A stretch of DNA of 64,000 nucleotides from a virus. The DNA lies in IMG/VR virus record IMGVR_UViG_3300005095_000015, positions 1 through 64,000 of that record. The stretch is one strand, 5' to 3'. Both the position numbers and the translations under genes were made by a program. Shown here piece after piece: positions 34,587-61,176 of this stretch. Position 1 is the first letter of the stretch; each line of letters opens with the position of its first letter. The notes beneath the pieces are model-generated. The model saw only the letters and a program-made list of their open reading frames with translations. It searched no databases and had not been told where the DNA came from.

Positions 34587-35993
34587 ATGGCTGACATGGT
34601 AGAAAGCAGAGTTAAGAAGATGGAACAGGAGGCAGAGATACTCTACGAGCGTTATCGTCCACAGATGGACTTGTTTGAAAAATCCATTGTAGCTCAACTC
34701 AGAGGAGGTTTACAGCCTTACGATGTGTACGCATTAGGAAAGCAACTCGAGGCATTCGATGTTTACAAGCAAATTTGTGAAGAGGACGGTAATGTTAATC
34801 AGCTTGGTAGAATTCCTGACATTGCTTACGATGTCATCACAGTGGCTTACGGAACATCTGTAATACCTGTTATTGCTTCTGTTCAGCCTGTGGATGACGA
34901 GAGAGGAACTGTATACTTCAAGAATGTAAAGGCTGGAACTACGAAGGGTGCAGTAACTGAAGGTGAGACCTTAGCGTCTCCGACTTCTGGTGCAACTACG
35001 CCTTCTGGTTATGCTTCTAACTACATTGAGGGTGAGGTTGTAGGAACTGGAGATACCGCTGGAACCACAACCTTCAGTGCAACCTTAGCACAGGCACCTG
35101 TTAGGTCTCAGACTGTAAAGGTAACTGTTTCTGGAGTTGCTAATGTCTTTGGACAGGATGATGGAAACGGAAACATCATAGGTGCAGGTGTAAGTGGTAC
35201 TATTGATTACACTACTGGTGCAATTACTCTTAACTTCCTCAATGCTCCACCTGCAGGAGCACAGATTCTTGTAAGCTATCAGACCAACTACGAGCTCGCA
35301 GAGGACATTCCTTCCATCTCCACATTCTGGGACAGCACTTCTATAATGGCAAGGGTCTATGCACTCAAAGGTACAATTGGAATGCTCCAGAGCTTCGGAA
35401 TGAGAAAGAGGTTTGGAATTGTTGCTGAGGACGAGCTTGCAAAAGACCTTGTTGCAGAGATCAATGCAGAGGTAGGAGGAGACCTCATCAGAAAGCTCAA
35501 TGCAAACGCACCTGGGTCTGTAACCTGGAGCAAAACTCCTCCAGCCGGTGTTTCCTACTATGAGCATAAGCAGACCTTTAAGGATGCATTAGCAGATGTT
35601 GAGTCTACCTTAGTTGGACAGGCTGGAAGAGGTGTGATTAGTACTCTTATCGCTGGAAGAAATGTGGCTGCAGTAATTCAGACTTTACCTGGATTTACTA
35701 AACTTACTGATGGTTCCACAATAGGTGCACACATCTTTGGAACGCTTGACGGAATGACAGTGGTAAGAGTAACTGATGCATCTGTGCTTGATCCTAATAG
35801 AGCAATTGCAATCTATAAGGGAGCTAACCCATTTGAGGCTGCAGGAGTGTATGCTCCTTATATGCCACTTACAGTAACTACAACCTTACCTGCAGGAAAG
35901 AATCCTCTTGGTAACCAGAGAGCTGCTGCTGTTTGGGCTGGTGTTGAGGTGCTCGTACAGAACTTTGTTGTTGCTCTTGTTATGACTTCTTAA
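34587..35993 (+). CDS. major capsid protein (T4 gp23-like) with inserted beta domain
   Basis: SVQPV, LVAEINAEV, GVYAPYMPL motifs; SD GAGGAGG before ATG 34587; followed by a terminator. Confidence 0.88.
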   Translation: MADMVESRVKKMEQEAEILYERYRPQMDLFEKSIVAQLRGGLQPYDVYALGKQLEAFDVYKQICEEDGNVNQLGRIPDIAYDVITVAYGTSVIPVIASVQPVDDERGTVYFKNVKAGTTKGAVTEGETLASPTSGATTPSGYASNYIEGEVVGTGDTAGTTTFSATLAQAPVRSQTVKVTVSGVANVFGQDDGNGNIIGAGVSGTIDYTTGAITLNFLNAPPAGAQILVSYQTNYELAEDIPSISTFWDSTSIMARVYALKGTIGMLQSFGMRKRFGIVAEDELAKDLVAEINAEVGGDLIRKLNANAPGSVTWSKTPPAGVSYYEHKQTFKDALADVESTLVGQAGRGVISTLIAGRNVAAVIQTLPGFTKLTDGSTIGAHIFGTLDGMTVVRVTDASVLDPNRAIAIYKGANPFEAAGVYAPYMPLTVTTTLPAGKNPLGNQRAAAVWAGVEVLVQNFVVALVMTS

Positions 35994-36003
35994 TTCCTGA
36001 CTT

Positions 36004-36037
36004 AACCCAGCCTGCCTAAAGTGGCGGGCTGGGTTTT
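36004..36037 (+). terminator. Rho-independent terminator after the capsid gene
   Basis: AACCCAGCCTGCC-TAAAGT-GGCGGGCTGGGTT followed by TT. Confidence 0.85.
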
Positions 36038-36070
36038 ATGTGTTTACTCCAGCTATCTAAGGAGGTTACA

Positions 36071-36448
36071 ATGGCAAAGGTTAGAATTGTAAACAACACC
36101 AAAGGGCCTATCAGGATTAATAAGGTTGGGCGTTCTCCTCTGATTATTAGCCCAGGTGAGATGGTGGTAGATGTTAGTGTACTAGGACCTTACAATGACG
36201 CTCTTCTAGTTTGGCAAAAGGCAGGGGTTATACAGATTTTACCTGTTGAGGAAGAGATTGAGAAGTCAGCAGAAGTTAAAGTAAAAGAAGTGCCTACAAA
36301 GGTTGAAGCTGAAGCAGATGAAAAGGCAGAACAATCTGTAGCTGAAGAGCAAGAAGTAAAAGAAGAAGTTAAACCTGAAGAGGATAAAGAGGAAAAGAAG
36401 GAAAAACCTAAGAAGCGTGTAGTAAAACGCTCTAAGCGTAATAGATAA
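36071..36448 (+). CDS. hypothetical virion-region protein with E/K-rich tail
   Basis: SD AAGGAGG before ATG 36071. Confidence 0.55.
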   Translation: MAKVRIVNNTKGPIRINKVGRSPLIISPGEMVVDVSVLGPYNDALLVWQKAGVIQILPVEEEIEKSAEVKVKEVPTKVEAEADEKAEQSVAEEQEVKEEVKPEEDKEEKKEKPKKRVVKRSKRNR

Positions 36449-36462
36449 AAGGGTAAAGCGAA

Positions 36463-37095
36463 ATGATCCCCCTTACCGAACTTTGGGAAAGATTATTAGA
36501 TGAGTCAGGACAGTACTTGTATGAGAACTTACCTGACACTACCTACGATCCAGCTAAGTTTGAACCTTTTGTTAAACGGGTTCTGTCAATCTACAGCCAG
36601 TACCGTCCTATAGAGAGAACCTTCAATATAAGTGTAACAAACTTAAAGTTCGACTTTACTGATCACACTTACGGCGTACCTGAGTGGATCTCCAGAGCAG
36701 TTTGCGTTAGTTTTCCTTACGCACCGTTGCTTTGGAATATGCAAAAGAGCCCGGTAAGCCAACCACCTGAAATGCCTTGGACTTACAGAAAACCTATACT
36801 TTACACCTCAGCAAATGGAGAGTTTGAGGTCACAGCAGTCTATCACCACAGCATAGAGCAAGATACAGCTGGTAACTATTACTTACCAACCATAGACTAC
36901 AATGATGATTTATTCTTCAAACTCCTACTCGGTAAGTTTTTACAGAAGTTAGGTAGGTCAAGAAAAGCTTTCACCTTAAACGACTTACCCATAGCTTCAG
37001 ATGCTGCTGATTTGGTAAGTGATGGTAGAGATTTGGAGCAGGAAGCATTGCAAGAGCTCGGTGAGCTTAGCAAGTGGTATTTAGCGTGGGGTTAA
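36463..37095 (+). CDS. putative head-tail adaptor (neck) protein
   Basis: Position; C-terminal DAADLVSDGRDLEQEA resembles adaptor proteins. Confidence 0.5.
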   Translation: MIPLTELWERLLDESGQYLYENLPDTTYDPAKFEPFVKRVLSIYSQYRPIERTFNISVTNLKFDFTDHTYGVPEWISRAVCVSFPYAPLLWNMQKSPVSQPPEMPWTYRKPILYTSANGEFEVTAVYHHSIEQDTAGNYYLPTIDYNDDLFFKLLLGKFLQKLGRSRKAFTLNDLPIASDAADLVSDGRDLEQEALQELGELSKWYLAWG

Positions 37096-37101
37096 GGTTA
37101 A

Positions 37102-37848
37102 ATGCATGCAAAAGAGGTTTTAGCATTGGTAGAAGCAATAAAACCTAAACTTACTCTTTACGATCTGTATAAAAATACAGCTGAGTTTCAAAGAAGACAG
37201 CCTTCACGGATAGGAAGAGTTCCTCCGCCTCATCAGGAGCTAAGGATACTTGAATGGAGTGTAGTTCCTTTTGTGGGAACTAAAAGCTTGCTTGTTACAG
37301 CATTGGTTGAGCCAGGAACTCCAGGAAGACTTCCCAAAAAAGCAATCATCAAGTTTTACAATGTTGAATTTGCTGAAAATCCTGCTGAGGTAAGGCACGA
37401 TCCCGACTGGTATAACTTTGTGAGCTATGTGAAGATTCCTGTTAGAACAGGTGGCTTTGTTACTGAGCCGCAGGAAGTAGCTTTCAAAAAGATAAATGCT
37501 AAGTGGTGTCCAGTACAGGTTAGATGTAACTGTGAAGATTTTTACTTCAGGTTTGGTTGGTACTTGAAAGAGTTTGGTTCTTTTTATGGTAAAGGACCTA
37601 AACCTTACCAGAGGAAAACTACCTGGTGGCCGTCTCAGAACAGATATCACATACCTGCAATGTGCAAGCATCTATGGAACCTAGCTAGGGCTTTAGAAAG
37701 AGCAGGTGTACTTTATGGGTTACCACCAATTAGACACAATGCGCCACCACCTAATGTAAGCAAGCCTACTACGGGTGGTAAGGTTGAAATGAGTGCACAA
37801 GCGTTTGTTAAGTTTATGCAGAAGATTTTAAGCGGAGATGTTAAGTAA
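37102..37848 (+). CDS. SWIM-type zinc finger protein with leader
   Basis: VRCNCEDF...MCKH; N-terminus MHAKEVLALVEA. Confidence 0.6.
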   Translation: MHAKEVLALVEAIKPKLTLYDLYKNTAEFQRRQPSRIGRVPPPHQELRILEWSVVPFVGTKSLLVTALVEPGTPGRLPKKAIIKFYNVEFAENPAEVRHDPDWYNFVSYVKIPVRTGGFVTEPQEVAFKKINAKWCPVQVRCNCEDFYFRFGWYLKEFGSFYGKGPKPYQRKTTWWPSQNRYHIPAMCKHLWNLARALERAGVLYGLPPIRHNAPPPNVSKPTTGGKVEMSAQAFVKFMQKILSGDVK

Positions 37849-38252
37849 TGAGTGTTCTAGATGTGCTTGAGAATTACTTAGAGATAGTAAGCAATGTTCT
37901 TACTAATACTTTTGGCAAGGTTTACGGAGTAGATTTTGAGCTGTATAGAGCTGATCCAGTTGATCCTTATACAGTATATGGAGCTGATCCCGATGAAACT
38001 TCTTACAACCTTGTTACGACTGCTAAGGGAATACTTGTTCCTGCTTATGGCTTCGTTGATTATTCAAGTGAGGAAGCTGGTGTACTTGACGAGGCTTATC
38101 TCTATGCATCTGAAAACCTACAGCCTGGTGATATTGTGAAAATCCTGCGAAGTGATACAGCGACAAAGCGCTATAGGGTCTACGCAATGGAAGCTATTGG
38201 TATCACATCTCCTGTGATAAAGAGGTATAGGTTGAGACCTTTGGTGGATTAG
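37848..38252 (+). CDS. putative head closure protein
   Basis: Position and size; LQPGDIV beta pattern. Confidence 0.45.
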   Translation: MSVLDVLENYLEIVSNVLTNTFGKVYGVDFELYRADPVDPYTVYGADPDETSYNLVTTAKGILVPAYGFVDYSSEEAGVLDEAYLYASENLQPGDIVKILRSDTATKRYRVYAMEAIGITSPVIKRYRLRPLVD

Positions 38253-38256
38253 CACT

Positions 38257-38892: not shown

Positions 38893-38905
38893 AGGAGGAG
38901 AGCTG

Positions 38906-39100
38906 ATGGCTAAAAAGAAGGCAAGAAAAGCCAAAGAAGTCAAACCTATAGTTCTCGTTTCAAGAGTAGATTACCCAATCAGATTATCACTTTCTGATGG
39001 AACTGCACTTATGCTCTCTCCAAGAGCAAAGGTAACACTTCCCAAGGGCACTGAACCTGCAGGGGAGTTACCAAGTGGTGTGATCAAGCTGAATGTGTAA
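38906..39100 (+). CDS. small hypothetical protein before the sheath gene
   Basis: SD GAGGAG. Confidence 0.55.
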   Translation: MAKKKARKAKEVKPIVLVSRVDYPIRLSLSDGTALMLSPRAKVTLPKGTEPAGELPSGVIKLNV

Positions 39101-39122
39101 AACTTAGGTGGAGGTGAAAGAT

Positions 39123-40889
39123 ATGGGAGCTCCTGCAGTAACACTAAGAGAACAAGACATATCTACCAGGGTACCAAGTTTCCCTGGTATTTACGGTGGA
39201 ATTGTTATTCCAGCTAAGAAAGGACCAGTAAACAAGCCAACACTTGTTACTAATGAATCAGACTTGCTTAAGTATTTTACTCCTAACGAAAGAATAGAGG
39301 TTGGTTACGATCTTAGCTACTACTCTGCTCTAGCTTTCCTTCAGAAGAGTAATAAGCTTTGGGTGGTGAGAGTTGTTAACGGTGCTAAGTACGGTGGAGC
39401 TCAGATTGTAACTAGTACTTCAACTAACAGTAACTATCAAGCTGTCCAAGCTATAAGCGATTTAACCGCTTTCGATTTCGGTGCAAATGCAAGCACCTGG
39501 TCTCCTGGTACAGCTTACACTGTAGGACAAGAGGTTGTGCCAACTACTGCTAATGGTTATTATTATGTATGTGTCACTGCTGGTACTTCTGCCTCTGTTG
39601 AACCAACCTGGCCAACCACTTTGGGAGACACTGTAACAGATGGTGGTGTAACTTGGCTTTGTGTCGGAACATTAGATAGCTGCTTACTTATAACAGGAGC
39701 AAATGAAGGTGCTTGGAATAATGACATAGGTATTACCATTATAACTGATCCTGATGTAGTGAAAGTTGATAACGCTTTTATAGTACAGGTGTATAGGAAA
39801 AACGGAGATGTTGTGGAGCAAGTTGAAGAGTTTCTCTGCTCCAGAACCCCAGGTGCTAAGGATGGTTATGGTAGAAACATCTATGTAGAAGATGTGACCG
39901 AAGGTTCTAATTACATTAGAATTCGGAATAATCCAACTATTGACTCAACTGTCTTACCAAAGGCTCAGGATACAATTCTTTATCTTGCTCAGGGGACAGA
40001 TGGTGATGCAGTAACGAGTGCTCAGATGATAGCTGGTGCTGACTTGCTAGCTAACCCCGATGATGTCCCTCTTACTTTGCTTATGGATGGTGGCTGGGCT
40101 GTACCAGAGTATCAGCAAAAACTTTACAGTGTAGCTGAGTCGAGGAAAGATTGCGTAGCTATTTTGTCTACTCCTTATGACGCTGAAGACAGTGCTGATT
40201 ATCTCAATGAAATTGTAAACTATAGAAAAGTTGACCTGAATGCAAACACAAGCTACGCAGCAATCTTTACTCCGCATCTTAAAATCTATGATAAGTACAA
40301 TGACAGGTACATCTATGTGGCACCTGACGGCTATGCGGCTGCAGCTATCTCTGAAACCGCTTCTAACTATGAGATTTGGTTTGCTCCTGCTGGACCAAAG
40401 AGAGGTGTGCTCAATGTACTTGATGTGAAGAGAAGATTTGCTCAAGGTGAAATGGATTATCTCTACGATAACGGTATCAACCCAATTAGGTTCAAGCCAG
40501 GTAAGGGTATAGCGATTTGGGGACAGAAAACCTTGCTCAGTACTCCAAGCGCACTTGACAGATTGAATGTAAGATTGCTGTTTATAGTTATTGAGCCTGC
40601 TATTAAGGAAGCTCTTGATGGATTTTTGTTTGAGGTGAATGATGAGGCAACAAGGGCTTTGGTAACAGCTATGATACAATCTTATATGGACGGTATTAAG
40701 GCAAGAAGAGGAGTATACGATTATTACATTGTTTGTGACAGTACAAACAACACACCTGAAGACATAGACAATCACAGACTTAATGTTTGGTTGTTTGTGA
40801 AGCCGATCCAGGTTGCTGAGTACATACAGTTCACCACTATTATCACAAGAACAGGAGTTGACTTCAAAATAGCAGCACAAACACTGTAA
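39123..40889 (+). CDS. contractile tail sheath protein with CBM-like insertion
   Basis: KGPVNKP, GAWNN, WFAPAG..RG, INPI, WGQKT, RLNVRLL, FEVND, CDSTNNTP. Confidence 0.92.
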   Translation: MGAPAVTLREQDISTRVPSFPGIYGGIVIPAKKGPVNKPTLVTNESDLLKYFTPNERIEVGYDLSYYSALAFLQKSNKLWVVRVVNGAKYGGAQIVTSTSTNSNYQAVQAISDLTAFDFGANASTWSPGTAYTVGQEVVPTTANGYYYVCVTAGTSASVEPTWPTTLGDTVTDGGVTWLCVGTLDSCLLITGANEGAWNNDIGITIITDPDVVKVDNAFIVQVYRKNGDVVEQVEEFLCSRTPGAKDGYGRNIYVEDVTEGSNYIRIRNNPTIDSTVLPKAQDTILYLAQGTDGDAVTSAQMIAGADLLANPDDVPLTLLMDGGWAVPEYQQKLYSVAESRKDCVAILSTPYDAEDSADYLNEIVNYRKVDLNANTSYAAIFTPHLKIYDKYNDRYIYVAPDGYAAAAISETASNYEIWFAPAGPKRGVLNVLDVKRRFAQGEMDYLYDNGINPIRFKPGKGIAIWGQKTLLSTPSALDRLNVRLLFIVIEPAIKEALDGFLFEVNDEATRALVTAMIQSYMDGIKARRGVYDYYIVCDSTNNTPEDIDNHRLNVWLFVKPIQVAEYIQFTTIITRTGVDFKIAAQTL

Positions 40890-40890
40890 C

Positions 40891-40964
40891 GCCGGCGTAG
40901 CTCAACTTGGCAGAGCAGGGGATTTGTAATCCCTTGGGTGTGGGTTCAACTCCCTCCGCCGGCT
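40891..40964 (+). tRNA. tRNA-Thr(UGU), CCA not encoded
   Basis: Acceptor GCCGGCG/CGCCGGC, D arm GCTC/GAGC, anticodon arm GGGGA-TTTGTAA-TCCCT, T loop TTCAACT; one T-stem mismatch. Confidence 0.9.
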
Positions 40965-40990
40965 CTTAATCCAAGAGGAGGTGTTTAACG

Positions 40991-41509: not shown

Positions 41510-41519
41510 GGTTTGAGCG

Positions 41520-42008: not shown

Positions 42009-42020
42009 AGAGGTGCTTAA

Positions 42021-47911: not shown

Positions 47912-49683
47912 TAAATCTAACTTCGTTATCATTTGAGAAGATAAAAGAAGACCTGCTTAACTACTTACAATCACGCCCTGACTATGAGAGGTGGAAAGAC
48001 TTTTTTGAATCCTCTACAGGTACGATATTGATCGAATTGCTTGCGGGGCTAGGTTCTTTTCTATCTCATCTGCTTACTGTTGGTAGAAGAGAGGCTTATC
48101 TATTTCCTGCTATGCTCAAGTCTTCAACAATAGCAATGGCACAGTTTCTTGGTTACTCAGCGTTTAGAGGTAAAAACTCAACAGCCACTCTTACCATTAC
48201 ACCTGAGTATACTACCTCCGTAGCTCGATTTTCCTCTATCGGAACTTACAATGATTATGATTTGGTTATTTTAAGTGATGTATTTTTGACAGAAGGACAG
48301 AGCCAAAATGTAGAAGTTGTAATAGGTAAGAAAGGTGAAGAGACTTTATCAATAGACACAAACGGTATTCATCGATTCTCTACCGCTTTTCTTAGTGAAG
48401 ATGTCCGTCTCTTGCTTGACGGAGCTGAAGTGGAGTTAGGTACTTCGTTTGAAGATTTACTCAACGATAAGTGGTTGCTTGTTACTAACCCTCTAGAAAG
48501 TGTCGATGCAGTATATCTCGGAGAGATTACAGGTACTCACGAGTTGACTTTAGAGTATATCTTGTTTGCTCAAGTAGATAGTATAGACATTTCAAAAGCT
48601 CAATGCTACTACGGTACGATAGAAAGCCTTGTTGATTTCACTCGATATCAATCACCCGAGTCAATCGATAAAATTAAATCAGTTGCTCCAGCATATCACG
48701 ATTTGCAAAAGGTAATAAGAAGTAGAGAGGATTATGTAAAGCTGGTTAAACAGTTATTACCAAACGCTGTTGATGTTGCAGGTAATGACCCTTCACCACC
48801 AGAAGTTCAAATCTCTTATGTATTAGAGGATGAGAGCTTGTTGAGTGACGATGACAAGACAAGTTTGCTTAACGAACTTGACAAGTACAGACCTTTCGGT
48901 TTACCTGTACCAACGATTGTTGATCCTAAGAAGTTGAACTCTGAAATCATAGCACAGCTGAAAGTTTATTCAGGTTCAAACATGGATGAAATCAAAAGCA
49001 CTGTTCAAAGCGTAGCTGGTTCTTTTAGTAAGAAACTCGGTATCACGGTGGATGTCGATGAGATTGAGTCAATGATCGAATCAGATAGTGCTGTTAAGGT
49101 GGCTAGGGTGCAGTGGAAAGTACTCGGTGAGTTTCTAGGCGCTGGTAGCACCGCAACTTCAACCTTCACTGTTAGGTTCCCTCCCGTGGTTAGTGGTAGT
49201 GATATGGTGTACATAGATGGAACTCCAGCTAAAGAGATTACTTCGAGCGTGACAGGAGAAGTGGTTGGTACTGGCAGCACAGCAGGAACTACTGTTTTTA
49301 CGGCTACTTTAGCTAATACCAACATCAAACCTAGCACAGTAACCGTTCACTATACCATAGGTACAACAAACTACACGGCAGCCGATGATGGAAACGGAAA
49401 CATAACAGGAACTTACTTGACAGGAACGATTAACTACACGACTGGTGACATTTCACTGACATTTTCCAGTGCTCCTGATGCTGGAACCAACATAACAGTT
49501 GACTATCTTTACTTTCCTTACTGGTACACAATGAACTACACGACAGGAGAGATCACCTTCAAATCTCCACCACCTGCTGGATCTTCTATAACTGCTGATT
49601 ACATAACAACTTTAAACGAGGCTCAGCTAGAGTGGAATGAGTACACAACGATGAGTTATCAAATCTCAGTTGAGGTCGTATAA
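47908..49683 (+). CDS. baseplate wedge protein (gp6/J-like) with nested insertion domains
   Basis: SLSFEKIKEDL, ESIDKIK, REDY. Confidence 0.8.
   Translation: MINLTSLSFEKIKEDLLNYLQSRPDYERWKDFFESSTGTILIELLAGLGSFLSHLLTVGRREAYLFPAMLKSSTIAMAQFLGYSAFRGKNSTATLTITPEYTTSVARFSSIGTYNDYDLVILSDVFLTEGQSQNVEVVIGKKGEETLSIDTNGIHRFSTAFLSEDVRLLLDGAEVELGTSFEDLLNDKWLLVTNPLESVDAVYLGEITGTHELTLEYILFAQVDSIDISKAQCYYGTIESLVDFTRYQSPESIDKIKSVAPAYHDLQKVIRSREDYVKLVKQLLPNAVDVAGNDPSPPEVQISYVLEDESLLSDDDKTSLLNELDKYRPFGLPVPTIVDPKKLNSEIIAQLKVYSGSNMDEIKSTVQSVAGSFSKKLGITVDVDEIESMIESDSAVKVARVQWKVLGEFLGAGSTATSTFTVRFPPVVSGSDMVYIDGTPAKEITSSVTGEVVGTGSTAGTTVFTATLANTNIKPSTVTVHYTIGTTNYTAADDGNGNITGTYLTGTINYTTGDISLTFSSAPDAGTNITVDYLYFPYWYTMNYTTGEITFKSPPPAGSSITADYITTLNEAQLEWNEYTTMSYQISVEVV
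48383..48399 (+). promoter_or_regulatory. late-region motif B copy 3 (intragenic)
   Basis: CCGCTTTTCTTAGTGAA inside the wedge gene. Confidence 0.5.
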
Positions 49684-51385: not shown

Positions 51386-53515
51386 ATGAGCACTTTAAAG
51401 GATAATCAGCTTTTAGTCCAAGATGTTATAACTAAAGGTATTGTGAGAGACATCAGAGCATACAATGGGTCTTTAACCGATGCTATAGCTGATATAGGTA
51501 GTGATGAGGTAACTCTACTCATCTCTGAGCCTATTACGGTCAATCAGGATTTGACTGTACCTGAGAATATATGTTTGAAAGTATTGAAAGGCTGTCCCAT
51601 TACAGTTGGGGTTAAAGCTCAGGCAAACGAAGTTATAGGTACAGGAAGCACAGCAGGTACTACATCCTTCAGTACCACCTTAAGTGATCCGCCTGTTGTT
51701 TGGAAATCGGTAACAGTGTCTTGGATAAGTGGAGGTGTAAGCTATACAGCAACTGATGATGGTAAAGGAAATATCAGCTCTCCCTATGTAAGTGGAACTA
51801 TTGACTATGATTCAGGAGCAATCTCTCTCACTTTTAGCACTGTTGCAGTTCCTGATGCAGGAACTAATATAATGTGTACTTATACTCCTGCTCATGTACT
51901 GACTATCAATGGAGCAATAGAAGCTGGACTGTGGCAGATATTCGACGGTCAAGGCAAAGTTACCGGCAATCCAAAGATCGAAGCCGTTTATCCAGAGTGG
52001 TTTGGAGCTAAGGGGGATGGGATGACGGATGATGCTCCTGCAATACAGAAAGCTATAGATTTTTGTGCGCAAAATCAAAAGGCTAAAGGCAGTTGTATTA
52101 AGCTTTCACGAAACCATTATAGGATAACTTCAAATATTTGTGTAAAAACCGATAATGTAACGATTGAAGGAGAAGGAGGCGGAAACTGGCAGAGCTCGGA
52201 TATCAACAATTTTGACTCTGCCGAGACTGTTATTGAGTACACTGGTGCAGATTACGCTTTTGTATGCGGAGACAACAGTGGAAGGACTTTCAGTGGTATA
52301 TGTTTTAGAGGTTTTAAGCTACTTTTGACGGGTGGGGGAGGTGGGATAAACTATGTTCGGTTATGTCATGGTAATTGCAATGTCGAAAATGTAGCTTTTT
52401 ATGGAAATGACGCTACTCCTTATTCGGGAGTTGGTATACGATATGGTGATATGTGTCAAAGTAATAGGGTTATAAACTGTTCTTTTTGGTATCTTGACTA
52501 TGGCGTATACCTTTATGGGTTGAATGACAATTTGGTCTTCATTGGTAATAAATTTATAAGGACAGGGACAGCTGGAATAAAACTTGGTGATTCAGCTTCT
52601 ACTTATACTGCTGGCAACAGTTTTCTTATTATAGGGAATCATTTTGGTAAGAATGGTAAAGCGGGAGTTTGGGTGTTCAAGAGCCCAAAGCCTGTTGCTA
52701 TCATAGGAAACTACTTTGAGAACTCAACAGACCTTGATGAAAGAGCGATAATAGTAGGGGATACTGGATACACAGCCTACTCTGTTGAGATAAGAGGGAA
52801 TGTTATATCGGGCTCTGGAATTTCAAATTATGGAATAGAATTGATAAATGTTGATGGTTGTGTGATCGAAAGCAACGCTCACATGGCGTATCTTGCGAAG
52901 TTTATACTTGTGTCTGGAGGGTCTGATGTAAGAAATGTTGTAGTAAGAAATAATTCTCGATTTTCTGGGAGTTATGGAGATTTGTCTGCCTATGATGGAG
53001 TTGTTGAATGGAAACCGAGCTCTACGAGTAATACTATCTATCTGAATACTCTAGGAGCAATTGTTTTAGCTGCAAGAGTGACGGGGAATAGCAACAACAA
53101 CTTTGCTGTTACTGCTGATGGTAAGTTAGAATGGGGGGATGGTATTAATCCTTTAGATATCGTTCTCTATAGGGCTGCTACAAAAAGACTGAACTTAATT
53201 GGGCACTTGCGAACGGAAGGGGGGGCTTTTTCTTCTGTGATTCAAACTTTTGTTGACGGAGATACTACCCCAAGTGTGGCCAATTCTAATGTATTTAGGA
53301 CAGCAAATACTTCAGCGACTTCAATTATACAGTTCGATGACGGTATAGATGGTCAAGAAATAACAGTTATTTTTGGCGATTCTAACACCACTATCGTTCA
53401 CAACAGTACAGCTGCTACTTATCCTATCTTGCTTAAAGGAGGCGTAAGTATTACACCTTCTACTAATACAGCTATAAAGTTTGTTTTCAGTGGAAACCGT
53501 TGGATAGAAGTGTAA
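51386..53515 (+). CDS. tailspike 1 (pectate-lyase-like beta-helix)
   Basis: PEWFGAKGDGMTDDAPAIQKAID; IGN/GN beta-helix repeats. Confidence 0.8.
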   Translation: MSTLKDNQLLVQDVITKGIVRDIRAYNGSLTDAIADIGSDEVTLLISEPITVNQDLTVPENICLKVLKGCPITVGVKAQANEVIGTGSTAGTTSFSTTLSDPPVVWKSVTVSWISGGVSYTATDDGKGNISSPYVSGTIDYDSGAISLTFSTVAVPDAGTNIMCTYTPAHVLTINGAIEAGLWQIFDGQGKVTGNPKIEAVYPEWFGAKGDGMTDDAPAIQKAIDFCAQNQKAKGSCIKLSRNHYRITSNICVKTDNVTIEGEGGGNWQSSDINNFDSAETVIEYTGADYAFVCGDNSGRTFSGICFRGFKLLLTGGGGGINYVRLCHGNCNVENVAFYGNDATPYSGVGIRYGDMCQSNRVINCSFWYLDYGVYLYGLNDNLVFIGNKFIRTGTAGIKLGDSASTYTAGNSFLIIGNHFGKNGKAGVWVFKSPKPVAIIGNYFENSTDLDERAIIVGDTGYTAYSVEIRGNVISGSGISNYGIELINVDGCVIESNAHMAYLAKFILVSGGSDVRNVVVRNNSRFSGSYGDLSAYDGVVEWKPSSTSNTIYLNTLGAIVLAARVTGNSNNNFAVTADGKLEWGDGINPLDIVLYRAATKRLNLIGHLRTEGGAFSSVIQTFVDGDTTPSVANSNVFRTANTSATSIIQFDDGIDGQEITVIFGDSNTTIVHNSTAATYPILLKGGVSITPSTNTAIKFVFSGNRWIEV
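51989..52042 (+). repeat. 54-bp exact repeat shared with 59716-59769
   Basis: TATCCAGAGTGGTTTGGAGCTAAGGGGGATGGGATGACGGATGATGCTCCTGCA. Confidence 0.9.
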
Positions 53516-53530: not shown

Positions 53531-55420
53531 ATGTCAGTAAAAATAACCTCTGACTACATCAGCACTCCAAACATCATCGATATCCGCCAGTACAGCACCT
53601 TATCCGAAGCTCTAACCCTCATAGGTTCCAACGAAGTTACCCTGCTTATTGCTGAGCCTTTTACAGTAGAGGAGAATGCAACAGTTCCTGAAAATATTTG
53701 TCTGAAGTTTACCAAGGGTGGAAAGCTTGTAATCAGTGCTGGATATACAGTTACAATAAATGGCGGGATTGAAGCTGGATTGTGGCAAATATTTGATGGA
53801 GATGGAAAGGTAACAGGTTCACCTAAAATCGAAGCTGTTTATCCAGAATGGTTCGGTGCAGTTGGTAATGGAGTTACGGATGATACATCCGCTTTTAACA
53901 AAGCAATTGATTTCGCTAAGACTTGTAATTTTGCTAAAGTTGAGTTAAGCGAAGCAGTTTATGTAGTGAGTAGTACACTATCACCATTGAATAATTCCTT
54001 TAATTCAATATCAATCGTGGGTAGAGGAAGATCGACAACTATAGATGGATCTGCAATTGGAAGTGAAGTTCCAATCTTTCAGCTAGTAGGAGGTTCCGGT
54101 GTCGTGACTTTGGGGTATATACAAGATCTTACAATCAAAGGAAGTGGAGCGGAAATAGGAATTGAAAATAAAGGATGTTGTGGTTTCAAATTTTACAGAG
54201 TAACTTTCAAAGGTCTTAAATATGGTATAGTATTCAGCAACGATATCGCTGCTGGAACATTCACAGAATATTCAGTTGCAGAGGAGTGTTCTTTCGAGTC
54301 AGATGTAGAAACAGCTGTCTTTTATAAGAGAGGAGCTGGTGATCCTAGCTTTCATGGTAGTGGTCTTAGAAAGTGCACGATAAATAATGGAGACACAATA
54401 ACAGCTCCTTCGATACGGATAGGGGATGCTATCGATACAGGTATTGTTTTGTATAACGCACCGTTGGACTTTCAAGTATGGACTCGCAATACTTATAATA
54501 TTATTGAAGCAAACGCATCTTTGATAACTACTTACGGAACAATTACAATAGAAAGATTCAATGGTACACCAACTCTTTGTAGTGGAACAACAATACACCA
54601 TGCAGGAGATGTATTGTTATGGGGTTCCACAGAAGGTGTGAAACTGGGGGATTTTGTCTTATGTGATCGACTTTGGACAAATTCAGACGGATCAATCAAC
54701 GCATTTGAAAAAACTACAAATTACTATGCAGAAACAAATGCTAATGAAAGTGTAACTTTATGTAAAGTAGACGAAGAAGGTAGTTTAATTTTTGTTCATT
54801 TAATTTCCAACAATTACGACAAAAAGTATTTGATTTGTGCTCACAAAGATAACTATGGTGGGGTTGGTGATGCTGGTTTCTTTCACGAAACAGTAACAGC
54901 CTTTGGTAGTGGGAGTGCAGTGGCCAGTAGCACTGTTGATACAACAATACACGAATTTTTTCTATCTCAACCAGCAATCTTGCAGCGAATAGATGCTTAC
55001 TTTCAATCTGCTTTTGCTCAGTATAATACGGCAGATTCAGCAGAGATTTTGATATTAAAAGGAACATCTGAAGTTGCATCACTCTCTTTGACACCAGGAA
55101 GCAAATATAATGCAAGTTGGGTGAATGTTGATCTTTCTACAGGAACTTACCAAATTGTTATTCGTGTAACATCTGCTGGAACAACTGCAGCAACACCTCC
55201 ACAATCAGGGAACATAACTCTTCGTTTAGTTCATCCTTACATTACACTTAATTCGTTTGATGTTGCAGGCTTAGGAGATCCCACTTTTAGCATAGACAGC
55301 GCAGGAAATCTGATAGTATCAAACCCAAACTGGGCAACTACCGCTGTCAATGTTTCTATCCGTGTAGTAAAAATAGGTACTATGCGTACTCCTTATTTTA
55401 ATAATTTTGTACAACAGTAG
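53531..55420 (+). CDS. tailspike 2 (beta-helix)
   Basis: Same N-terminal anchor; PEWFGAVGNGVTDDTSAF. Confidence 0.8.
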   Translation: MSVKITSDYISTPNIIDIRQYSTLSEALTLIGSNEVTLLIAEPFTVEENATVPENICLKFTKGGKLVISAGYTVTINGGIEAGLWQIFDGDGKVTGSPKIEAVYPEWFGAVGNGVTDDTSAFNKAIDFAKTCNFAKVELSEAVYVVSSTLSPLNNSFNSISIVGRGRSTTIDGSAIGSEVPIFQLVGGSGVVTLGYIQDLTIKGSGAEIGIENKGCCGFKFYRVTFKGLKYGIVFSNDIAAGTFTEYSVAEECSFESDVETAVFYKRGAGDPSFHGSGLRKCTINNGDTITAPSIRIGDAIDTGIVLYNAPLDFQVWTRNTYNIIEANASLITTYGTITIERFNGTPTLCSGTTIHHAGDVLLWGSTEGVKLGDFVLCDRLWTNSDGSINAFEKTTNYYAETNANESVTLCKVDEEGSLIFVHLISNNYDKKYLICAHKDNYGGVGDAGFFHETVTAFGSGSAVASSTVDTTIHEFFLSQPAILQRIDAYFQSAFAQYNTADSAEILILKGTSEVASLSLTPGSKYNASWVNVDLSTGTYQIVIRVTSAGTTAATPPQSGNITLRLVHPYITLNSFDVAGLGDPTFSIDSAGNLIVSNPNWATTAVNVSIRVVKIGTMRTPYFNNFVQQ

Positions 55421-55433
55421 GAGGTAACTAACC

Positions 55434-56018
55434 ATGAAACCGCTTTGGTCTGATTGGCGTAAAGTTGGCTTTTCTTTGATGAGATGGGGAATTAACATTG
55501 CCAAGCCTTTACTTACAAACAACCAATTTTGGCTACTTGAAACAGTAACCTCCGATACTCAGCTTGAGCTTGCAAGGAAGCTTACCATCACTCAAGTTAC
55601 CGCAAACGAACTTTCACAGCTCACCAAGCGGCAGCTAAATGTTGAGGCTTGGTGTTGGGATAGTAAGTATAACTGTATTAAACTAACCGATTTTCAGGCA
55701 ATCATAGCTTCCGACTTTACCAACCGAATGAAATGGCTCGCTGAGACCTGGGATTGTGATAACTTCGCATCATTATTCTCCTCACTTATGAGCCTTATCT
55801 ACAACTTCAATGGAGCAGGCATAGCACTTGGAGCTGTTGTAAATAAGCAAACGAAACAGATAGAAGGTTACCATGCCTACAACTGCGTGATACTTGACAC
55901 TAACAACACCAAGAAACTCTATCTCTACGAACCACAAGCCGACATACTTAAGCCAGCAGCAAAAGAAACAGACATGGAATGGGGTGTTTATAGAACCGAT
56001 TTAGTTATCTATCACTAA
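55434..56018 (+). CDS. papain/transglutaminase-fold cysteine enzyme (agglutinin C-terminal-like)
   Basis: WDCDNFA...HAYN...YEPQ catalytic triad pattern. Confidence 0.65.
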   Translation: MKPLWSDWRKVGFSLMRWGINIAKPLLTNNQFWLLETVTSDTQLELARKLTITQVTANELSQLTKRQLNVEAWCWDSKYNCIKLTDFQAIIASDFTNRMKWLAETWDCDNFASLFSSLMSLIYNFNGAGIALGAVVNKQTKQIEGYHAYNCVILDTNNTKKLYLYEPQADILKPAAKETDMEWGVYRTDLVIYH

Positions 56019-56028
56019 GGAACCAAAG

Positions 56029-56700
56029 ATGACAACCTTCATCATTCTAGGTTTACATAGAAGTGGCACCTCGCTGACAGCTTGCTTGTTGCATCATCTA
56101 GGTGTTCATCTAGGTGACACCCTCATCGGTGCTAATGAAGGTAACCCCAAGGGACATTATGAAAATATTGACATAACTCTTACCCACGAAGAGTGGTTGA
56201 GAGAGCTTGGCGGTTCTTGGTGCGAGGTGCCCTCTGTTGCTAAGGTTTGTAATAGCCTGGAGCGATTTGTTCCAAAGGCAAAGGAATTGGTTGAAAAACA
56301 TAAGAAGGATGGGTTATGGGGATGGAAAGATCCAAGGAACACTATCTTTTTACCTGTTTACTTAGAACTCTATCAGCAAGGACTTTTAGGGAATCTAAAG
56401 GTAATGGTCTGTACACGCAACTTTGTTTCTGCAGCAAGGTCAGTTTGTATAAGAGATAAATTTGATCAGCAAAAAGCATTCAAAGTTGTGTTTGCTTACC
56501 TCGAACACCTACAACATAACTTAAATCTGCTTTTCTTAGAAAAGATACCAGTGTTGTTTGTTGAATTTGAAAAGTACTTCAATCCAAAGTTTGCCAGAAG
56601 TCAGGTAGAAGAGATTGTGAGGTTTGTGTTAGGAAGACGGGATGTACAGCTTACTGATAAACTACTAACCTTGATTGATCCTACTCTCTGGAGGAGTTAA
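56029..56700 (+). CDS. sulfotransferase-family protein
   Basis: ILGLHRSGTS PAPS loop, NPKGHYE, WGWKDPR, RNFVSAARS. Confidence 0.8.
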   Translation: MTTFIILGLHRSGTSLTACLLHHLGVHLGDTLIGANEGNPKGHYENIDITLTHEEWLRELGGSWCEVPSVAKVCNSLERFVPKAKELVEKHKKDGLWGWKDPRNTIFLPVYLELYQQGLLGNLKVMVCTRNFVSAARSVCIRDKFDQQKAFKVVFAYLEHLQHNLNLLFLEKIPVLFVEFEKYFNPKFARSQVEEIVRFVLGRRDVQLTDKLLTLIDPTLWRS

Positions 56701-57416
56701 TGGATAAGGTAAGAGTGGTAATACCTACTGCTTTCAAGCATGAAAATGTTAGCTATGCAATACATTCCTTCATTGACCATAATGCACCTTGGATTGATAG
56801 CTTAGAAGTAGTGAACAGGGGAACATTTGCTGAGAACTGCAATTACGGAGCTGAGAAGTGTAGAGCTCCTTGGTTGCTTTTTCTAAACGACGACACTTAT
56901 ACGAGAAACTCTATCCTGAAGTTGATGCTAGACACCGCTAAGCAGTTTGATGCTCAAGTTGTAGGTGCTTATTTACAGTTCCCTGATGGTTCAATCCAAC
57001 ACTACGGAGTGTATTACACAGACGCTGGTTTACCTTTTCACTTGTTTTACAAACAGTACTTAGAAAGTGCTCTGCATTTTGGTGTGAAGCCTAGATTGGA
57101 ACCACACCTTGTTCCTTCTGTCACTGGAGCTTGCATCCTGATTAGAACTGAGCTTTTCTTTGACCTTGGTGGATTTGACACAGTATTTGTTAACGGATTT
57201 GAAGATGTAGATTTTAATCTAAAAGCCTTAAATGTTGGAGCAAAGATAGCTCTTTGCACAGAGACAAGTATTGTGCATTACGAGAAGGTTTCAAGGGGCG
57301 ACCCGAATAAAAAGAACAAAATGGATAACAGATTCCATGAGAACTTAAAGCTATTGACAAATAGATGGGACAGAAATAAGGTTCGTAGACTTGTCAAGGA
57401 GTATCAACCGTGGTAA
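56700..57416 (+). CDS. GT2-family glycosyltransferase
   Basis: FAENCNYG, FLNDD, VTGACILI, GGFD..F.NGFEDVDF. Confidence 0.85.
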   Translation: MDKVRVVIPTAFKHENVSYAIHSFIDHNAPWIDSLEVVNRGTFAENCNYGAEKCRAPWLLFLNDDTYTRNSILKLMLDTAKQFDAQVVGAYLQFPDGSIQHYGVYYTDAGLPFHLFYKQYLESALHFGVKPRLEPHLVPSVTGACILIRTELFFDLGGFDTVFVNGFEDVDFNLKALNVGAKIALCTETSIVHYEKVSRGDPNKKNKMDNRFHENLKLLTNRWDRNKVRRLVKEYQPW

Positions 57417-58045
57417 GGATTCTTATCCATACTCCTGTAGTGAAACCAAATTGGCTGAATATTATTTCGACTTTAGAACTTAGGAAACCTGTAAGGTTTG
57501 CTTGGTACATCACGAAGGGGCAGGATAATCAAAATATCTATGATATAAGGGGGCAAGAGACAGATGGTAGGTGGAGAAAGTTTGTTGCTGACAAGATGAA
57601 CAGAGCTAGAGAGTTGGTTCTTTCTGAAGGCTACGATTACATGCTCAACATTGAGCATGACCACATGTTTACACCAAATACTTTAGAGTTGCTCCTCAAA
57701 CACGCAAAGCCTGACATCTATATCTCAGCTCTCTACAGACCAAGACCAAGCAGAAACCCAAGATCAGTGTACTGTTTACATATAAAAGCTCAAAGAGGTG
57801 GAAGGTTTCCTGATAAAGAGTTTGTTGACAGTAATGAATTAATCAAAGCGTTTACCGTGGTATTTGGCTTCACCTTATTTGGCAGAAAGGTTCTAGAGAG
57901 GTTAGATTTTGATGAGGGTTTAGACGGAACATTTGCTTGGAAAGCTGAAAGAGTAGGTATAAAAAGGTATGTCTTAACTACCGCAAGAATAGCTCACATA
58001 GACAGAGACGGGAAGGTGTATTGGGCATGGTTAGACGAATCTTAG
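57410..58045 (+). CDS. GT-A fold glycosyltransferase
   Basis: GYDYMLNIEHDH, FGFTL, HIDRDG. Confidence 0.7.
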   Translation: MVRILIHTPVVKPNWLNIISTLELRKPVRFAWYITKGQDNQNIYDIRGQETDGRWRKFVADKMNRARELVLSEGYDYMLNIEHDHMFTPNTLELLLKHAKPDIYISALYRPRPSRNPRSVYCLHIKAQRGGRFPDKEFVDSNELIKAFTVVFGFTLFGRKVLERLDFDEGLDGTFAWKAERVGIKRYVLTTARIAHIDRDGKVYWAWLDES

Positions 58046-58467
58046 TTTCAGCTAAGGTTACCTTTACCATTACTGCTTTCTTTCTCACAGTTTTGTCATT
58101 GGATGCAAATGGATTTTGGGTAGATTACTTGTTTGTAGAGGACAAGGAGGTGCAAACAGTTTACCGAACAGCTAAGAACTACGATTACTTGCTTTGGTTA
58201 AGAGAAGATTTGCTTCCTTCTGCGGATTGCTTACATAGGATGGTTGCTAAGGGACACCCTGTAGTGACTGGTATTTGGAGAGGATGTGAGCATAAAGATA
58301 CAGAGGTTGAACTAGGCTGCTTGCTAATTCAAACAAACTTACTCTCTACTATAGATTTGAAAAGCAAATTTGTTAAGCTACCAGTTAATCCCTTCATTGC
58401 CAAAGATGTTGTTTGCGGTTTAATCTCAGACAACGGGTCAGTAGTTTACCCTAGAGGTGAGCTATGA
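58027..58467 (+). CDS. degenerate short GT-A-like protein
   Basis: YDYLLWLRED, PVVTG, GCLLI. Confidence 0.5.
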   Translation: MVRRILVSAKVTFTITAFFLTVLSLDANGFWVDYLFVEDKEVQTVYRTAKNYDYLLWLREDLLPSADCLHRMVAKGHPVVTGIWRGCEHKDTEVELGCLLIQTNLLSTIDLKSKFVKLPVNPFIAKDVVCGLISDNGSVVYPRGEL

Positions 58468-59075
58468 CAAAGGTACTTATCCATGTACCTATCTTCAATA
58501 ATTGCCCGCAGTTTTGGGAAAGTTTTTGGAAGTTAGACATTGAAGGGCTTGAAGTTGACTACTTTTTCACTAAGACAGATAAAGTCAAGACAAGGCTAGA
58601 TGATAAAGGCAACTATGATGCAAGAGATGTAGGAGTAAACTTACCCTGGAAAATGGAGAAGGCCAGGAAAGCCGCATTGGAAGGTGGTTATGATTATTTG
58701 TTTAATATAGAAGACGATCACATCATACCCAGTGACGCTTTAAAGAAGCTGCTTAGCTTCGGCAAAGATGTCATTTCAGGAGTTTACAGGTTGAGACCAA
58801 GCAAGTTTCCAGCCAAGCCTATTGCTGCTACGAAAACAGATAGAAAGTCTTGGGTTACAGTTGAGGATTTAGAAAAGACTCCTTTGCTAGAGTGTCATCT
58901 CGTGCCTTGGGGATGCTTATTACTCAGCAGGAGGGTACTTGAATCTGTTTCATTTGAAGGTGCTTTAGACGGGTTGTTCGTGGATAGGCTTGACAAAGCT
59001 GGATTCAAAAGATGGCTTGCAACTGAGGTAAGGTTGGGACATATAGATAGAGATGGAACTATTATTTGGGTTTAA
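58464..59075 (+). CDS. GT-A fold glycosyltransferase (paralog of 57410)
   Basis: GYDYLFNIEDDH, DVISGVY, WGCLL, HIDRDG. Confidence 0.75.
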   Translation: MTKVLIHVPIFNNCPQFWESFWKLDIEGLEVDYFFTKTDKVKTRLDDKGNYDARDVGVNLPWKMEKARKAALEGGYDYLFNIEDDHIIPSDALKKLLSFGKDVISGVYRLRPSKFPAKPIAATKTDRKSWVTVEDLEKTPLLECHLVPWGCLLLSRRVLESVSFEGALDGLFVDRLDKAGFKRWLATEVRLGHIDRDGTIIWV

Positions 59076-59088
59076 GGAGGTGTAAAGT

Positions 59089-61176
59089 ATGGGAAGAGCT
59101 AAACTCACAGCAACTGGACTTAACTATGTAGATGACAATCAGATAGAGCATACTGTGGTGGACTTAACTAAGCAGAGCTTAATCTCTAAGTTTCCGCTTG
59201 TCGATATAAGGGCTTACGGAGCCAAAGGAGATGGAGTGTATGATGATGCTCAGGCTATAACAGCCGCTCTTAATGAGATAGGGGCAAACGAATCTACCTT
59301 GCTGATACCTATTCCTATCTATCTTATGTCAGATGTAACTATCCCTGAAAATGTATGCTTAAAGTTTACCAAGGGCGGAAAGTGCGTAGTTGAAACGGAA
59401 GATATAAAGAGTGAACAGATTGGAGTAGGAGATACTGCTGGAACAACAACTTTTTATTTGAGCAGAACACCTGTGCTCAAAGATTCTGAGAAGATTTATG
59501 TAGATGGTGTTTTGCAAACAAGAGATACAGATTACGCAATTGATTATGAGACAGGAGAGATTGTGTTTACTACTGCTCCCTCGGCTGGAGCTGTTATTAC
59601 AGCTGATTACACACACAGATTCGTGTTGACAATAGATGGAGGGATACAAGCTGAACTCTTTCAGATCTTCTCTGGAAACGGAAAGATAACAGGTTCTCCA
59701 AAGATTGAGGCGGTGTATCCAGAGTGGTTTGGAGCTAAGGGGGATGGGATGACGGATGATGCTCCTGCATTTCACAAGTTGATAGAATTTGCTGAGAATG
59801 CGGTGAGAAGAATAGCATTGCAGAGCAAAACTTACTTATTGGCCTCGTACCAAGTAAGCACTTACATTCTCTACATTACATTCCCCGTTGTAATAGAAGG
59901 AAATGGTACAGTTATCAAGAAAGGACAGACTGGCTACTGTATAGTGATCGAAGGAACTGATGTCAGTCCTTTGGATTTTGTAGAAATATCAAATCTCGAA
60001 ATTGATGGAAACTCTTTAGGGCTACAATGCCTGACGATAAATTATGCTAAAAAAGTGATTTTAAAGAATGTTAAGGCTCACAATACAAGTTCTGACGATT
60101 GTATTTCTATTGCAAGAACAGAACAGGCTGATTTGACTAACATAGAAGCATACACAGCGGGGGCTTGGCCTTTGTTCTTCTATATGGTCGACGATGTCAG
60201 AATAAACGGATTCAGAGGATACAACTCTGCGAACAATGTAGATGTCATAGATGTTAAAGGAAGTTCCAATATTTTTATCAGAAATGTTGTAATAACAGGA
60301 TCTGCAAGGTACGGTATTAGAATCCGCAACAATGGAGTCAAAGTTTTAAAAACCTTGCTCATAGAAAATGCCGATATAACAAGTGACTGGGATGGTATTT
60401 CGATAGAAGCTGATCAAACTGACGGAACAACATCCGATATCTACTGTGTCATGTTAAACAACATCGCAACGAAGCGTATAGAGGCTACGGGATATTCAAC
60501 TACTCCAATTAAGTGCATCTATGTTAATAACCTGAAGGCAGAAGACTGGGGTGGAGACTATGCAACCGCCTTCAACTACGCCGAGCTTGTTAAGATAGAA
60601 AATAGCTACTTCGACATAGGATTCTACGGAATTTGTAATGCGCAGAATTGTAAACTGGTTATTGTTGAAGGTAATGTCATCAAGAATATAGGAGCAGGTA
60701 GTACGATAACAAGACCTGTTATTAGAATATACAACACGGAACATTTATATGTCAAAAACAATTTAGTAGAAGGTGGAACTTATACAGGATACTTAGTGGA
60801 AGATGACAGTACTTCAAAGATCGTACCGGTGTTTGAAAACAACAAGCTCTTTAATGTTCCTTCTTTGTTCAATGGTGACTTATATGTTTCCTTTCCTGAT
60901 GGAGACACAGCTCCCTCAGTTGCAAATGGAAATTACTTCAAAACGGTCAATACCAACACAGCAGGGACAGCTATCATTGAATTTAAAGACGGAATCCCCG
61001 GGCAGCGCATTACTGTAATCTTTACTGATGGGCTTACGACAGTAGTACATAATTCAGCTTCCGCTACACATCCTATTATTCTCAAAGGCGGAATTAACGC
61101 AGCTCCTCCGGCTGATTCAACTATGGAATTTGTATTTGACGGTAGCAAATGGTACGAAGTAAGTAGGAGCTTTTAA
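59089..61176 (+). CDS. tailspike 3 (beta-helix)
   Basis: YGAKGDG, PEWFGAKGDG; C-terminal domain shared with tailspike 1. Confidence 0.8.
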   Translation: MGRAKLTATGLNYVDDNQIEHTVVDLTKQSLISKFPLVDIRAYGAKGDGVYDDAQAITAALNEIGANESTLLIPIPIYLMSDVTIPENVCLKFTKGGKCVVETEDIKSEQIGVGDTAGTTTFYLSRTPVLKDSEKIYVDGVLQTRDTDYAIDYETGEIVFTTAPSAGAVITADYTHRFVLTIDGGIQAELFQIFSGNGKITGSPKIEAVYPEWFGAKGDGMTDDAPAFHKLIEFAENAVRRIALQSKTYLLASYQVSTYILYITFPVVIEGNGTVIKKGQTGYCIVIEGTDVSPLDFVEISNLEIDGNSLGLQCLTINYAKKVILKNVKAHNTSSDDCISIARTEQADLTNIEAYTAGAWPLFFYMVDDVRINGFRGYNSANNVDVIDVKGSSNIFIRNVVITGSARYGIRIRNNGVKVLKTLLIENADITSDWDGISIEADQTDGTTSDIYCVMLNNIATKRIEATGYSTTPIKCIYVNNLKAEDWGGDYATAFNYAELVKIENSYFDIGFYGICNAQNCKLVIVEGNVIKNIGAGSTITRPVIRIYNTEHLYVKNNLVEGGTYTGYLVEDDSTSKIVPVFENNKLFNVPSLFNGDLYVSFPDGDTAPSVANGNYFKTVNTNTAGTAIIEFKDGIPGQRITVIFTDGLTTVVHNSASATHPIILKGGINAAPPADSTMEFVFDGSKWYEVSRSF

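Follow-up and report, generated by a model that had tools for sequence, protein, structure and literature searches.

In the first 64 kb (64,000 nucleotides, hereafter the window) of the complete 95,675-bp phage record IMGVR_UViG_3300005095_000015, which carries direct terminal repeats, the four-residue word Thr-Ala-Gly-Thr (TAGT) recurs in capsid, sheath, baseplate wedge and tailspike proteins, and an initial annotation had taken it for a candidate glycosylation sequon. We find that this recurrence is probably structural, and that TAGT is probably a lineage-specific turn variant of one paralogous immunoglobulin (Ig)-like decoration module. This mobile module is of the type found in the P1 capsid insertion (I-) domain and in the C-terminal part of DUF2460, and at four sites TAGT lies in the loop of its first (A-B) beta-hairpin. 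Across phages, this hairpin is built from a capping Asp or Asn, a Gly turn and then a Thr-rich strand, and its form here is G[DS]TAGTTxF. The recurrence would arise mainly through paralogy, with the wedge, tailspike 1 and tailspike 3 copies forming one clade, and a compositional constraint of the family, which keeps small residues ahead of conserved Gly-Thr pairs, may add to it. The capsid copy would have gained the same loop secondarily, by convergence or by an old short-tract conversion, and the other TAGT would be by-products of a GTS...EP.W motif in the sheath, of the T-[SA]-[AG]-T of Phage_depo_C and of a P-x-A-G-T loop.

Four TAGT share one position of a repeated module

A six-frame scan placed TAGT in coding frame at 35055 (capsid residue 160), 39576 (sheath residue 157), 49279 (wedge residue 458), 51650 (tailspike 1 residue 89), and 59434 and 60958 (tailspike 3 residues 116 and 624). 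These six coordinates and their flanks are exactly those given by the initial annotation, and the TSAGTT that it had listed in tailspike 2 is also present (residues 547-552). A seventh TAGT lies in an open reading frame (ORF) at 64007-64792, shortly past the end of the window. A search with the capsid copy recovered six copies of the domain in the genome, distributed among the capsid protein, the wedge (two, nested), tailspikes 1 and 3, and one further protein. The copies are about 80-94 residues long and fall into a long and a short type. The proteins and copies that bear TAGT at the A-B loop, together with the outer wedge copy, are the following.

34578-35993, + strand: gp23-type major capsid protein (Pfam Gp23)
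35025..35300, + strand: Ig-like I-domain of the capsid protein, with TAGT at 35055-35066 in the A-B hairpin loop
47908-49683, + strand: ORF of the gp6-like baseplate wedge
49126..49611, + strand: outer, short-type wedge copy, split by the inner one (hmmsearch stretches at wedge residues 407-439 and 541-567)
49249..49524, + strand: inner, long-type wedge copy, 57% identical to the capsid copy in alignments, with TAGT at 49279-49290
51386-53515, + strand: ORF of tailspike 1, pectate-lyase-type
51620..51901, + strand: copy inserted into the N-terminal part of tailspike 1 (AlphaFold2, VIA-align), with TAGT at 51650-51661
59089-61176, + strand: ORF of tailspike 3, pectate-lyase-type
59404..59640, + strand: short-type copy within the N-terminal part of tailspike 3 (Pfam DUF2460, alignment), with TAGT at 59434-59445

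Four-way alignments put TAGT in register across the capsid, inner wedge, tailspike 1 and tailspike 3 copies. Four of the seven TAGT therefore share one homologous position of a paralogous domain, which reduces the number of independent events to about 4-5. At the same loop, the outer wedge copy reads GAGSTATSTF, where STA is present and TAGT is absent. The modules are insertions at the virion surface, in line with the earlier description of the motif.

Several features of the copies are worth recording in their own right. In the wedge, the short-type copy gives way, past its first strands, to an entire long-type copy and resumes behind it; the same nested arrangement, with canonical GDG loops, is found in a 654-residue protein from another source (P0003). 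The fifth domain-bearing protein, the 261-residue product of ORF 64007-64792 (L006:1393-2178), has the A-B loop TTVTTATASPI, and a protein encoded on a 24.9-kb metagenome contig (P0026) joins a nearly identical module to a different C-terminal half. The three tailspikes share an N-terminal region (51386-51640, 53531-53790 and 59089-59420) and the junction motif ...GLWQIFDG.GK.TG.PKIEAVYPEWFGA..., and tailspikes 1 and 3 carry the module at the same point of this region, whereas tailspike 2 lacks it. The residue before TAGT also varies together with a later loop (positions compared: 35055/35250, 49279/49480, 51650/51850 and 59434/59590): copies with Ser (wedge, tailspike 1) have P-D-A-G-T there, and copies with Asp (capsid, tailspike 3) have P-P-A-G-A or P-S-A-G-A, a pattern drawn from only four data points.

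Fold and family of the domain

The AlphaFold2 model of the whole capsid protein (predicted local distance difference test, pLDDT, 90.5) places the loop between strands 146-154 and 162-166. In the model of the isolated tailspike 1 module (pLDDT 93.4), TAGT occupies residues 11-14 of a loop spanning residues 9-15 between the first two strands, where pLDDT is somewhat lower (85 versus >95). The model is an eight-stranded Ig V-like sandwich, with Ig V-like Foldseek neighbours. From this antiparallel eight-strand topology we infer that the A-B loop should lie distally, at the end opposite the insertion point, along with the P-x-A-G-T loop.

The nearest solved structure is that of P1 gp23 (9ukm). 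The whole capsid model matches 9ukm_A with a Foldseek E value of 1e-26, and both the fold and the place of insertion in the gp23/HK97 scaffold correspond to the P1 I-domain. When the tailspike 1 module is compared with residues 200-304 of 9ukm_A, VIA-align gives Z 9.8 and a root-mean-square deviation of 2.4 A over 89 residues, and Foldseek gives a template modelling (TM) score of 0.68. In both phages the beta-sandwich is carried within a gp23/HK97-type capsid protein, and the sequence profile matches in the C-terminal Y..G.I.L.F..AP..GT.I strand region. The P1 I-domain projects away from the surface of the capsid (PMC12810830). The two differ in that identity is just ~20%, and that the module of the present phage is not confined to the capsid but recurs in the wedge, in two tailspikes and in a fifth protein, with the longer [DS]TAGTT as its A-B turn.

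Scores for DUF2460 differ among the copies: against the PF09343 cut-off of 30.4 bits, the tailspike 3 copy scores 34.5 (profile positions 112-174), the capsid copy 14.7 and the wedge 11.5-22.8, and tailspike 1 gives no match. DUF2460 occurs in gene transfer agent and phage tail proteins, and the present copies match the C-terminal part of the Pfam model alone. The G.GDG..T.F start and the P.aG..I...Y end are common to the wider family, and the C-terminal strands Y-x-T-G-x-I-x-F ... P-x-x-G-x-x-I-x-x-x-Y are present, with G66, F72, P78, I84 and Y88 as invariant or nearly invariant columns. The difference lies in the turn, where the canonical D-G is replaced by [DS]-T-A-G: instead of starting with G-x-G-D-G-(x)-T-T-x-F, all four TAGT copies read G-x-G-[DS]-T-A-G-T-T-x-F. 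Ig-like decoration domains such as T4 Hoc and the Big-type domains are likewise small exposed beta-sandwich modules that move between virion proteins; their sequence family is unlike that of the present module, whose Foldseek neighbours are Ig V-like. Ig-like domains on the capsids, tails and fibres of tailed phages are thought to adhere weakly to glycans. For the present domain, the most likely role is to decorate and stabilise the surface of the virion, or to provide weak adhesion to glycans.

The turn is conserved in the family and altered in this phage

A profile built from five copies matched 2,248 clusters (E<1e-3) out of 1.84 billion representatives, and single proteins often bear many copies in tandem. 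The hairpin of 157 copies from other phages has the form G-T-G-D-G-(x)-T-T-x-F. Asp or Asn fills the capping position in 77% of them, the next position (11) is Gly in 68% and Thr in 6%, position 13, which is Gly in the present phage, is Gly in 6%, and the Phe that follows is conserved in 83%. The stretch from G-x-G to the aromatic residue measures 6 residues in 113 of 151 instances and 7 in nine, two of which belong to this phage, so that its loop, G-[DS]-T-A-G-T-T-x-F, is one residue longer than the modal form. This agrees with the earlier proposal that related DUF2460-like domains start with GxGDG and that TA is an insertion. In phages at large, Thr after the turn is the norm of the family, whose most conserved parts, in phages with different hosts, are the A-B loop and the P-x-A-G-T loop.

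The variant of this phage was found in none of the 157 foreign copies. Searches of IMG/VR for G-T-G-x-TAGTT-x-F returned 2 matches, both in unrelated Gly-rich fibres, and the looser G-x-G-x-TAGTT-x-F returned 24 (HK97-type capsids, tape-measure-like proteins and others), none of which, inspected by eye, has the downstream motifs of the domain. Where TAGT does occur in the family in other phages, it lies in the P-x-A-G-T loop or the S-G-T-I strand, and in a single case (P0259) in this same loop of the capsid. The variant is thus absent from nearly all homologues and its loop appears unburied; frequency among homologues and burial had been named at the outset as grounds for abandoning a sequon. 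A structural role for the loop appears most likely.

The excess of TAGT is modest once paralogues are collapsed

Over the whole proteome (137 ORFs, 30,423 amino acids), 7 TAGT are observed versus 0.45 expected from per-protein composition. Local shuffling gives an expectation of 0.42-0.65, and none of 300 local or global shuffles attained 7. When structural and non-structural proteins of the whole genome are compared, all seven fall in virion proteins, and the anagrams TGAT, TTAG, GTAT, ATGT and TGTA occur 0-2 times each. In homologous virion proteins of other phages, TAGT has a rate of 1.49 per 10,000 amino acids, often at the conserved small-residue-Gly-Thr positions of the domain family, from which about 1.5 would be predicted for the ~9,800 virion residues here. 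Because the independent events number 4-5 against this empirical prediction, the excess left after collapsing paralogues is modest.

Other candidate words show no comparable signal: [ST]-G-x-[ST], [ST]-G-S and DTG have observed-to-expected ratios of 1.2-1.7, no better than reversed controls or the non-structural proteins of this phage, and every arrangement of S, T, G and A reaches 1.5-2. The most over-represented four-residue words of the genome are KAKE (13 versus 1.2 expected), YKEL and AKEV, which stem from an MSKAKELLE-type N-terminal leader common to many proteins.

These counts bear on the possibility that TAGT is nothing more than a T/A/G word of low complexity that beta-rich virion proteins happen to share, with an accidental match in the capsid. 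The rate in other phages, the general enrichment of S/T/G/A arrangements and the presence of TAGTT at the same loop of one unrelated capsid orthologue (P0259) would all be compatible with coincidence, but the failure of every shuffle to reach seven and the rarity of the anagrams speak against it, as does the capsid itself, which required one substitution and one insertion to arrive at an exact match to its paralogues. We consider coincidence unlikely.

Origin of the loop in the capsid and its paralogues

The closest relatives of the capsid protein keep the canonical loop. P0152 (81% identical) has GTGDGATTTF and its cluster-mate P0279 (also L050) GTGDGTTTTF, L008 and L051 (78%) have ATGDGATTDF, and P0154 (60%) has DTGDGATVSF. 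Among 118 other capsid orthologues, TAGTT is found at the loop in one alone, the distant P0259 (49% identical). Judged from these sequences, the capsid TAGT is derived, by one substitution and one inserted Gly, because the relatives that are 78-81% identical retain GDG. P0152 also carries a TAGT of its own at another surface position, residue 123 (..GSITAGTTFAS.., where the present phage has ..GAVTEGETLAS..), and the word is therefore gained and lost in capsid loops rich in T, A and G.

Outside the loop, the capsid domain follows its own protein. It is 74% identical to the domain of the orthologue that is 81% identical overall, and 52% identical to the wedge copy, and in a tree computed with the loop masked it adjoins its orthologue. 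With the loop masked, a tree holding the wedge, tailspike 1 and tailspike 3 copies as a clade had a log-likelihood (lnL) 21.6 higher than the free search (approximately unbiased test, p-AU 0.72), and these three copies may descend from one ancestor that already bore the loop. Forcing all four copies into one clade lowered lnL by 47 and was not rejected (p-AU 0.136, on 82 columns). Among relatives of the wedge, none exceeds 42% identity, and none exceeds 35% over most of its length.

Two routes by which the capsid could have received the loop from a paralogue were rejected. Recent gene conversion between the copies would leave shared codons, and identical codons at identical residues number 29 versus 26.4 expected, which is chance; as the initial annotation had noted, the codons differ between copies and conservation is at the protein level. 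A swap of the whole domain is incompatible with the whole-protein comparison (74% to the orthologue versus 52% to the wedge copy, the orthologue and wedge copies being themselves 51% identical). An old conversion of a short tract into the capsid loop is possible. The most economical account has one ancestral variant in the tail modules and a second event in the capsid, either convergence or such an old short conversion.

TAGT outside the A-B loop

The remaining TAGT lie in other contexts, in or beside the following features.

39108-40889, + strand: ORF of the tail sheath
39480..39740, + strand: CBM5/12-like sheath insert (Pfam CBM_5_12), with TAGT at 39576-39587 in an unrelated context
53531-55420: ORF of tailspike 2, pectate-lyase-type
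60901..61173, + strand: Phage_depo_C beta-sandwich at the C-terminus of tailspike 3 (Pfam PF25692), with TAGT at 60958-60969 in an unrelated context

The sheath insert scores 24.7 bits for CBM_5_12 (PF02839; cut-off 26.2, E 2.4e-5) over residues 130-163, which include TAGT, and is absent from the sheath of a Rhizobium phage. Repeats of this kind in other phage proteins again have G-T-S ahead of ...EP.W. The last 91 residues of tailspike 3 match Phage_depo_C (PF25692) with 31.3 bits, above the cut-off of 25. Aligned at this segment, tailspike 3 has TNTAGTA, tailspike 1 ANTSATS and the outgroup SNSGATS. The tailspike 3 segment is indeed two residues longer than its tailspike 1 counterpart, as first reported, and the difference can be placed upstream of TAGT. 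Searches with this C-terminus found tailspike 3 itself alone and otherwise 2 weak phage matches. The TAGT of ORF 64007-64792 belongs to the conserved P-x-A-G-T loop of the same module family, which reads PDAGT in the wedge and tailspike 1 and PTAGT in the relative P0026.

The nearest full-length homologue of the wedge (P0272, 35% identical), encoded by an 88,958-bp contig, has three CBM5/12-like ...SEPSWP... repeats where this phage has its Ig-like modules, which suggests that the wedge can exchange its decoration modules.

This replacement, and the carbohydrate-binding-type insert of the sheath, are among the observations that would suit a different role for the loop, as a shared functional tip that is not covalently modified and forms a weak site for one host glycan or phage partner, co-adapted across copies, which would then evolve in concert. 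The same derived loop is found in long-type, short-type and capsid copies, the A-B and P-x-A-G-T loops are predicted from the topology to lie together opposite the insertion point, and the domain's neighbours in structure comparisons serve as decoration or baseplate modules in many phages. However, the conservation of both loops across phages of different hosts fits a folding role better, and we know of no ligand for the domain. A common binding tip thus seems improbable.

A sulfotransferase and glycosyltransferase cluster among the tailspike genes

The initial annotation had tied the motif to a cluster of glycosyltransferase (GT) and sulfotransferase genes. The cluster is real, as judged by Pfam, Atlas and paralogy, and comprises the following.

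55434..59075, + strand: candidate modifying cluster between tailspikes 2 and 3
within 55434..59075, + strand: lectin-like ORF
56029-56700, + strand: sulfotransferase (Atlas score 0.98; TM 0.90 in structural comparison with sulfotransferase clusters)
56700-57416, + strand: GT2 (PF10111 27.6 bits versus a cut-off of 27.3; PF00535 23.9 versus 23.3)
57410-58045, 58021-58467 and 58464-59075, + strand: three GT-A-like paralogues (32% identity, E 2e-31)

The three GT-A-like paralogues share a YDY...ExDH motif, and their Pfam support is weak. The middle one (58021-58467) has 148 residues, is missing a central segment found in both others, and shares 25 bases with the ORF before it; this paralogue may be degenerate. 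No close relatives of these paralogues were found in IMG/VR. The 5,202 amino acids (17.5 kb) read from the sole IMG/VR phage with a homologue, the distant L026, contain neither a copy of the module nor TAGT. No relative was found to carry the loop variant, and the nearest capsid relatives are fragments that do not include the tailspike region. Nothing ties the cluster to the loop motif.

According to the initial annotation, the [DS]-TAGT-T loop would be an acceptor for an O-glycan, possibly sulfated, selected in each exposed module for the phage's own GT/sulfotransferase cluster. Much of what is described above could be read in this way. The loop lies between strands and has lower pLDDT, the homologous P1 I-domain points outward (PMC12810830), the capsid changed from GDGA-T to GDTAGT after its split from relatives as close as 81% identity, codon identity at chance levels indicates conservation of the protein, the variant was seen in no other IMG/VR contig, and the late operon encodes a sulfotransferase, a GT2 and three GT-A-like proteins. 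Glycosylation of virions by phage GTs is moreover known from mycobacteriophages (Freeman et al. 2023, PMID 37329881, as cited in PMC11256854). Those phages resemble the present one in encoding soluble GTs whose candidate targets are outward-facing capsid and tail proteins; the GTs here belong to unrelated families and lie among tailspike genes together with a sulfotransferase. In mycobacteriophages Che8, Rita and others, virion O-glycosylation reportedly affects the capsid and the tail tube.

Several observations argue against an acceptor. The co-occurrence of loop and cluster comes from one genome. The Thr after the turn is common throughout the family whatever the GT content, three of the four loops are explicable by descent, the excess of candidate motifs across the virion does not surpass reversed controls, and domain and TAGT are both missing from the 17.5 kb read of the one other IMG/VR phage that encodes a homologue of the GT-A paralogues. 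The cluster could, in addition, act on host polysaccharide instead. We therefore regard glycosylation of the loop as very unlikely, and assign an equally low probability to the scenario in which the longer [DS]-T-A-G-T-T tip was fixed independently in capsid and tail modules as the acceptor for the sulfotransferase/GT cassette.

We also considered the general O-glycosylation sequon of Bacteroidota, D-(S/T)-(A/I/L/V/M/T), which acts on periplasmic proteins. It fits two of the four loops, capsid and tailspike 3 (D-T-A), while those of the wedge and tailspike 1 read S-T-A, and was rejected. Virions, unlike the periplasmic substrates of this sequon, assemble in the cytoplasm.

Discussion

Some of our results sit uneasily with a turn variant that recurs mainly by descent. 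The capsid loop is derived and has changed to the exact form of its paralogues, and the capsid domain outside the loop is hardly closer to them than its orthologue is (52% versus 51% identity to the wedge copy), so that a match by pure drift is unlikely. This secondary change is the one feature suggesting more than a turn variant. The signature common to long-type and short-type copies, together with the STA of the outer wedge copy, hints at a phage-specific pressure. The 4-5 events that remain after collapsing paralogues exceed the empirical expectation of about 1.5. Finally, the loop appears to be exposed, and a GT and sulfotransferase cluster does lie among the tailspike genes.

Were the loop a glycan acceptor after all, a possibly sulfated glycan would be attached to the capsid, the baseplate and two tailspikes, and its sequon, defined and embedded in the structure, would be the first of its type in a phage of this kind. 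It would offer a testable virion-glycosylation sequon outside actinophages and a handle on the role of the phage sulfotransferase, although even so it would be a variant of a phenomenon known in mycobacteriophages.

As a probable structural variant of a paralogous turn, the motif points to different biology. Five virion proteins of a single phage have come to share one Ig-like module, and the most conserved turn of that module has changed in concert to a form not seen elsewhere, the capsid having changed secondarily. Paralogous decoration domains have here undergone concerted or convergent evolution of a loop. It also calls for caution, as sequon-like words of T, A, G and S in virion proteins can stem from paralogy and from the turn motifs of a family.

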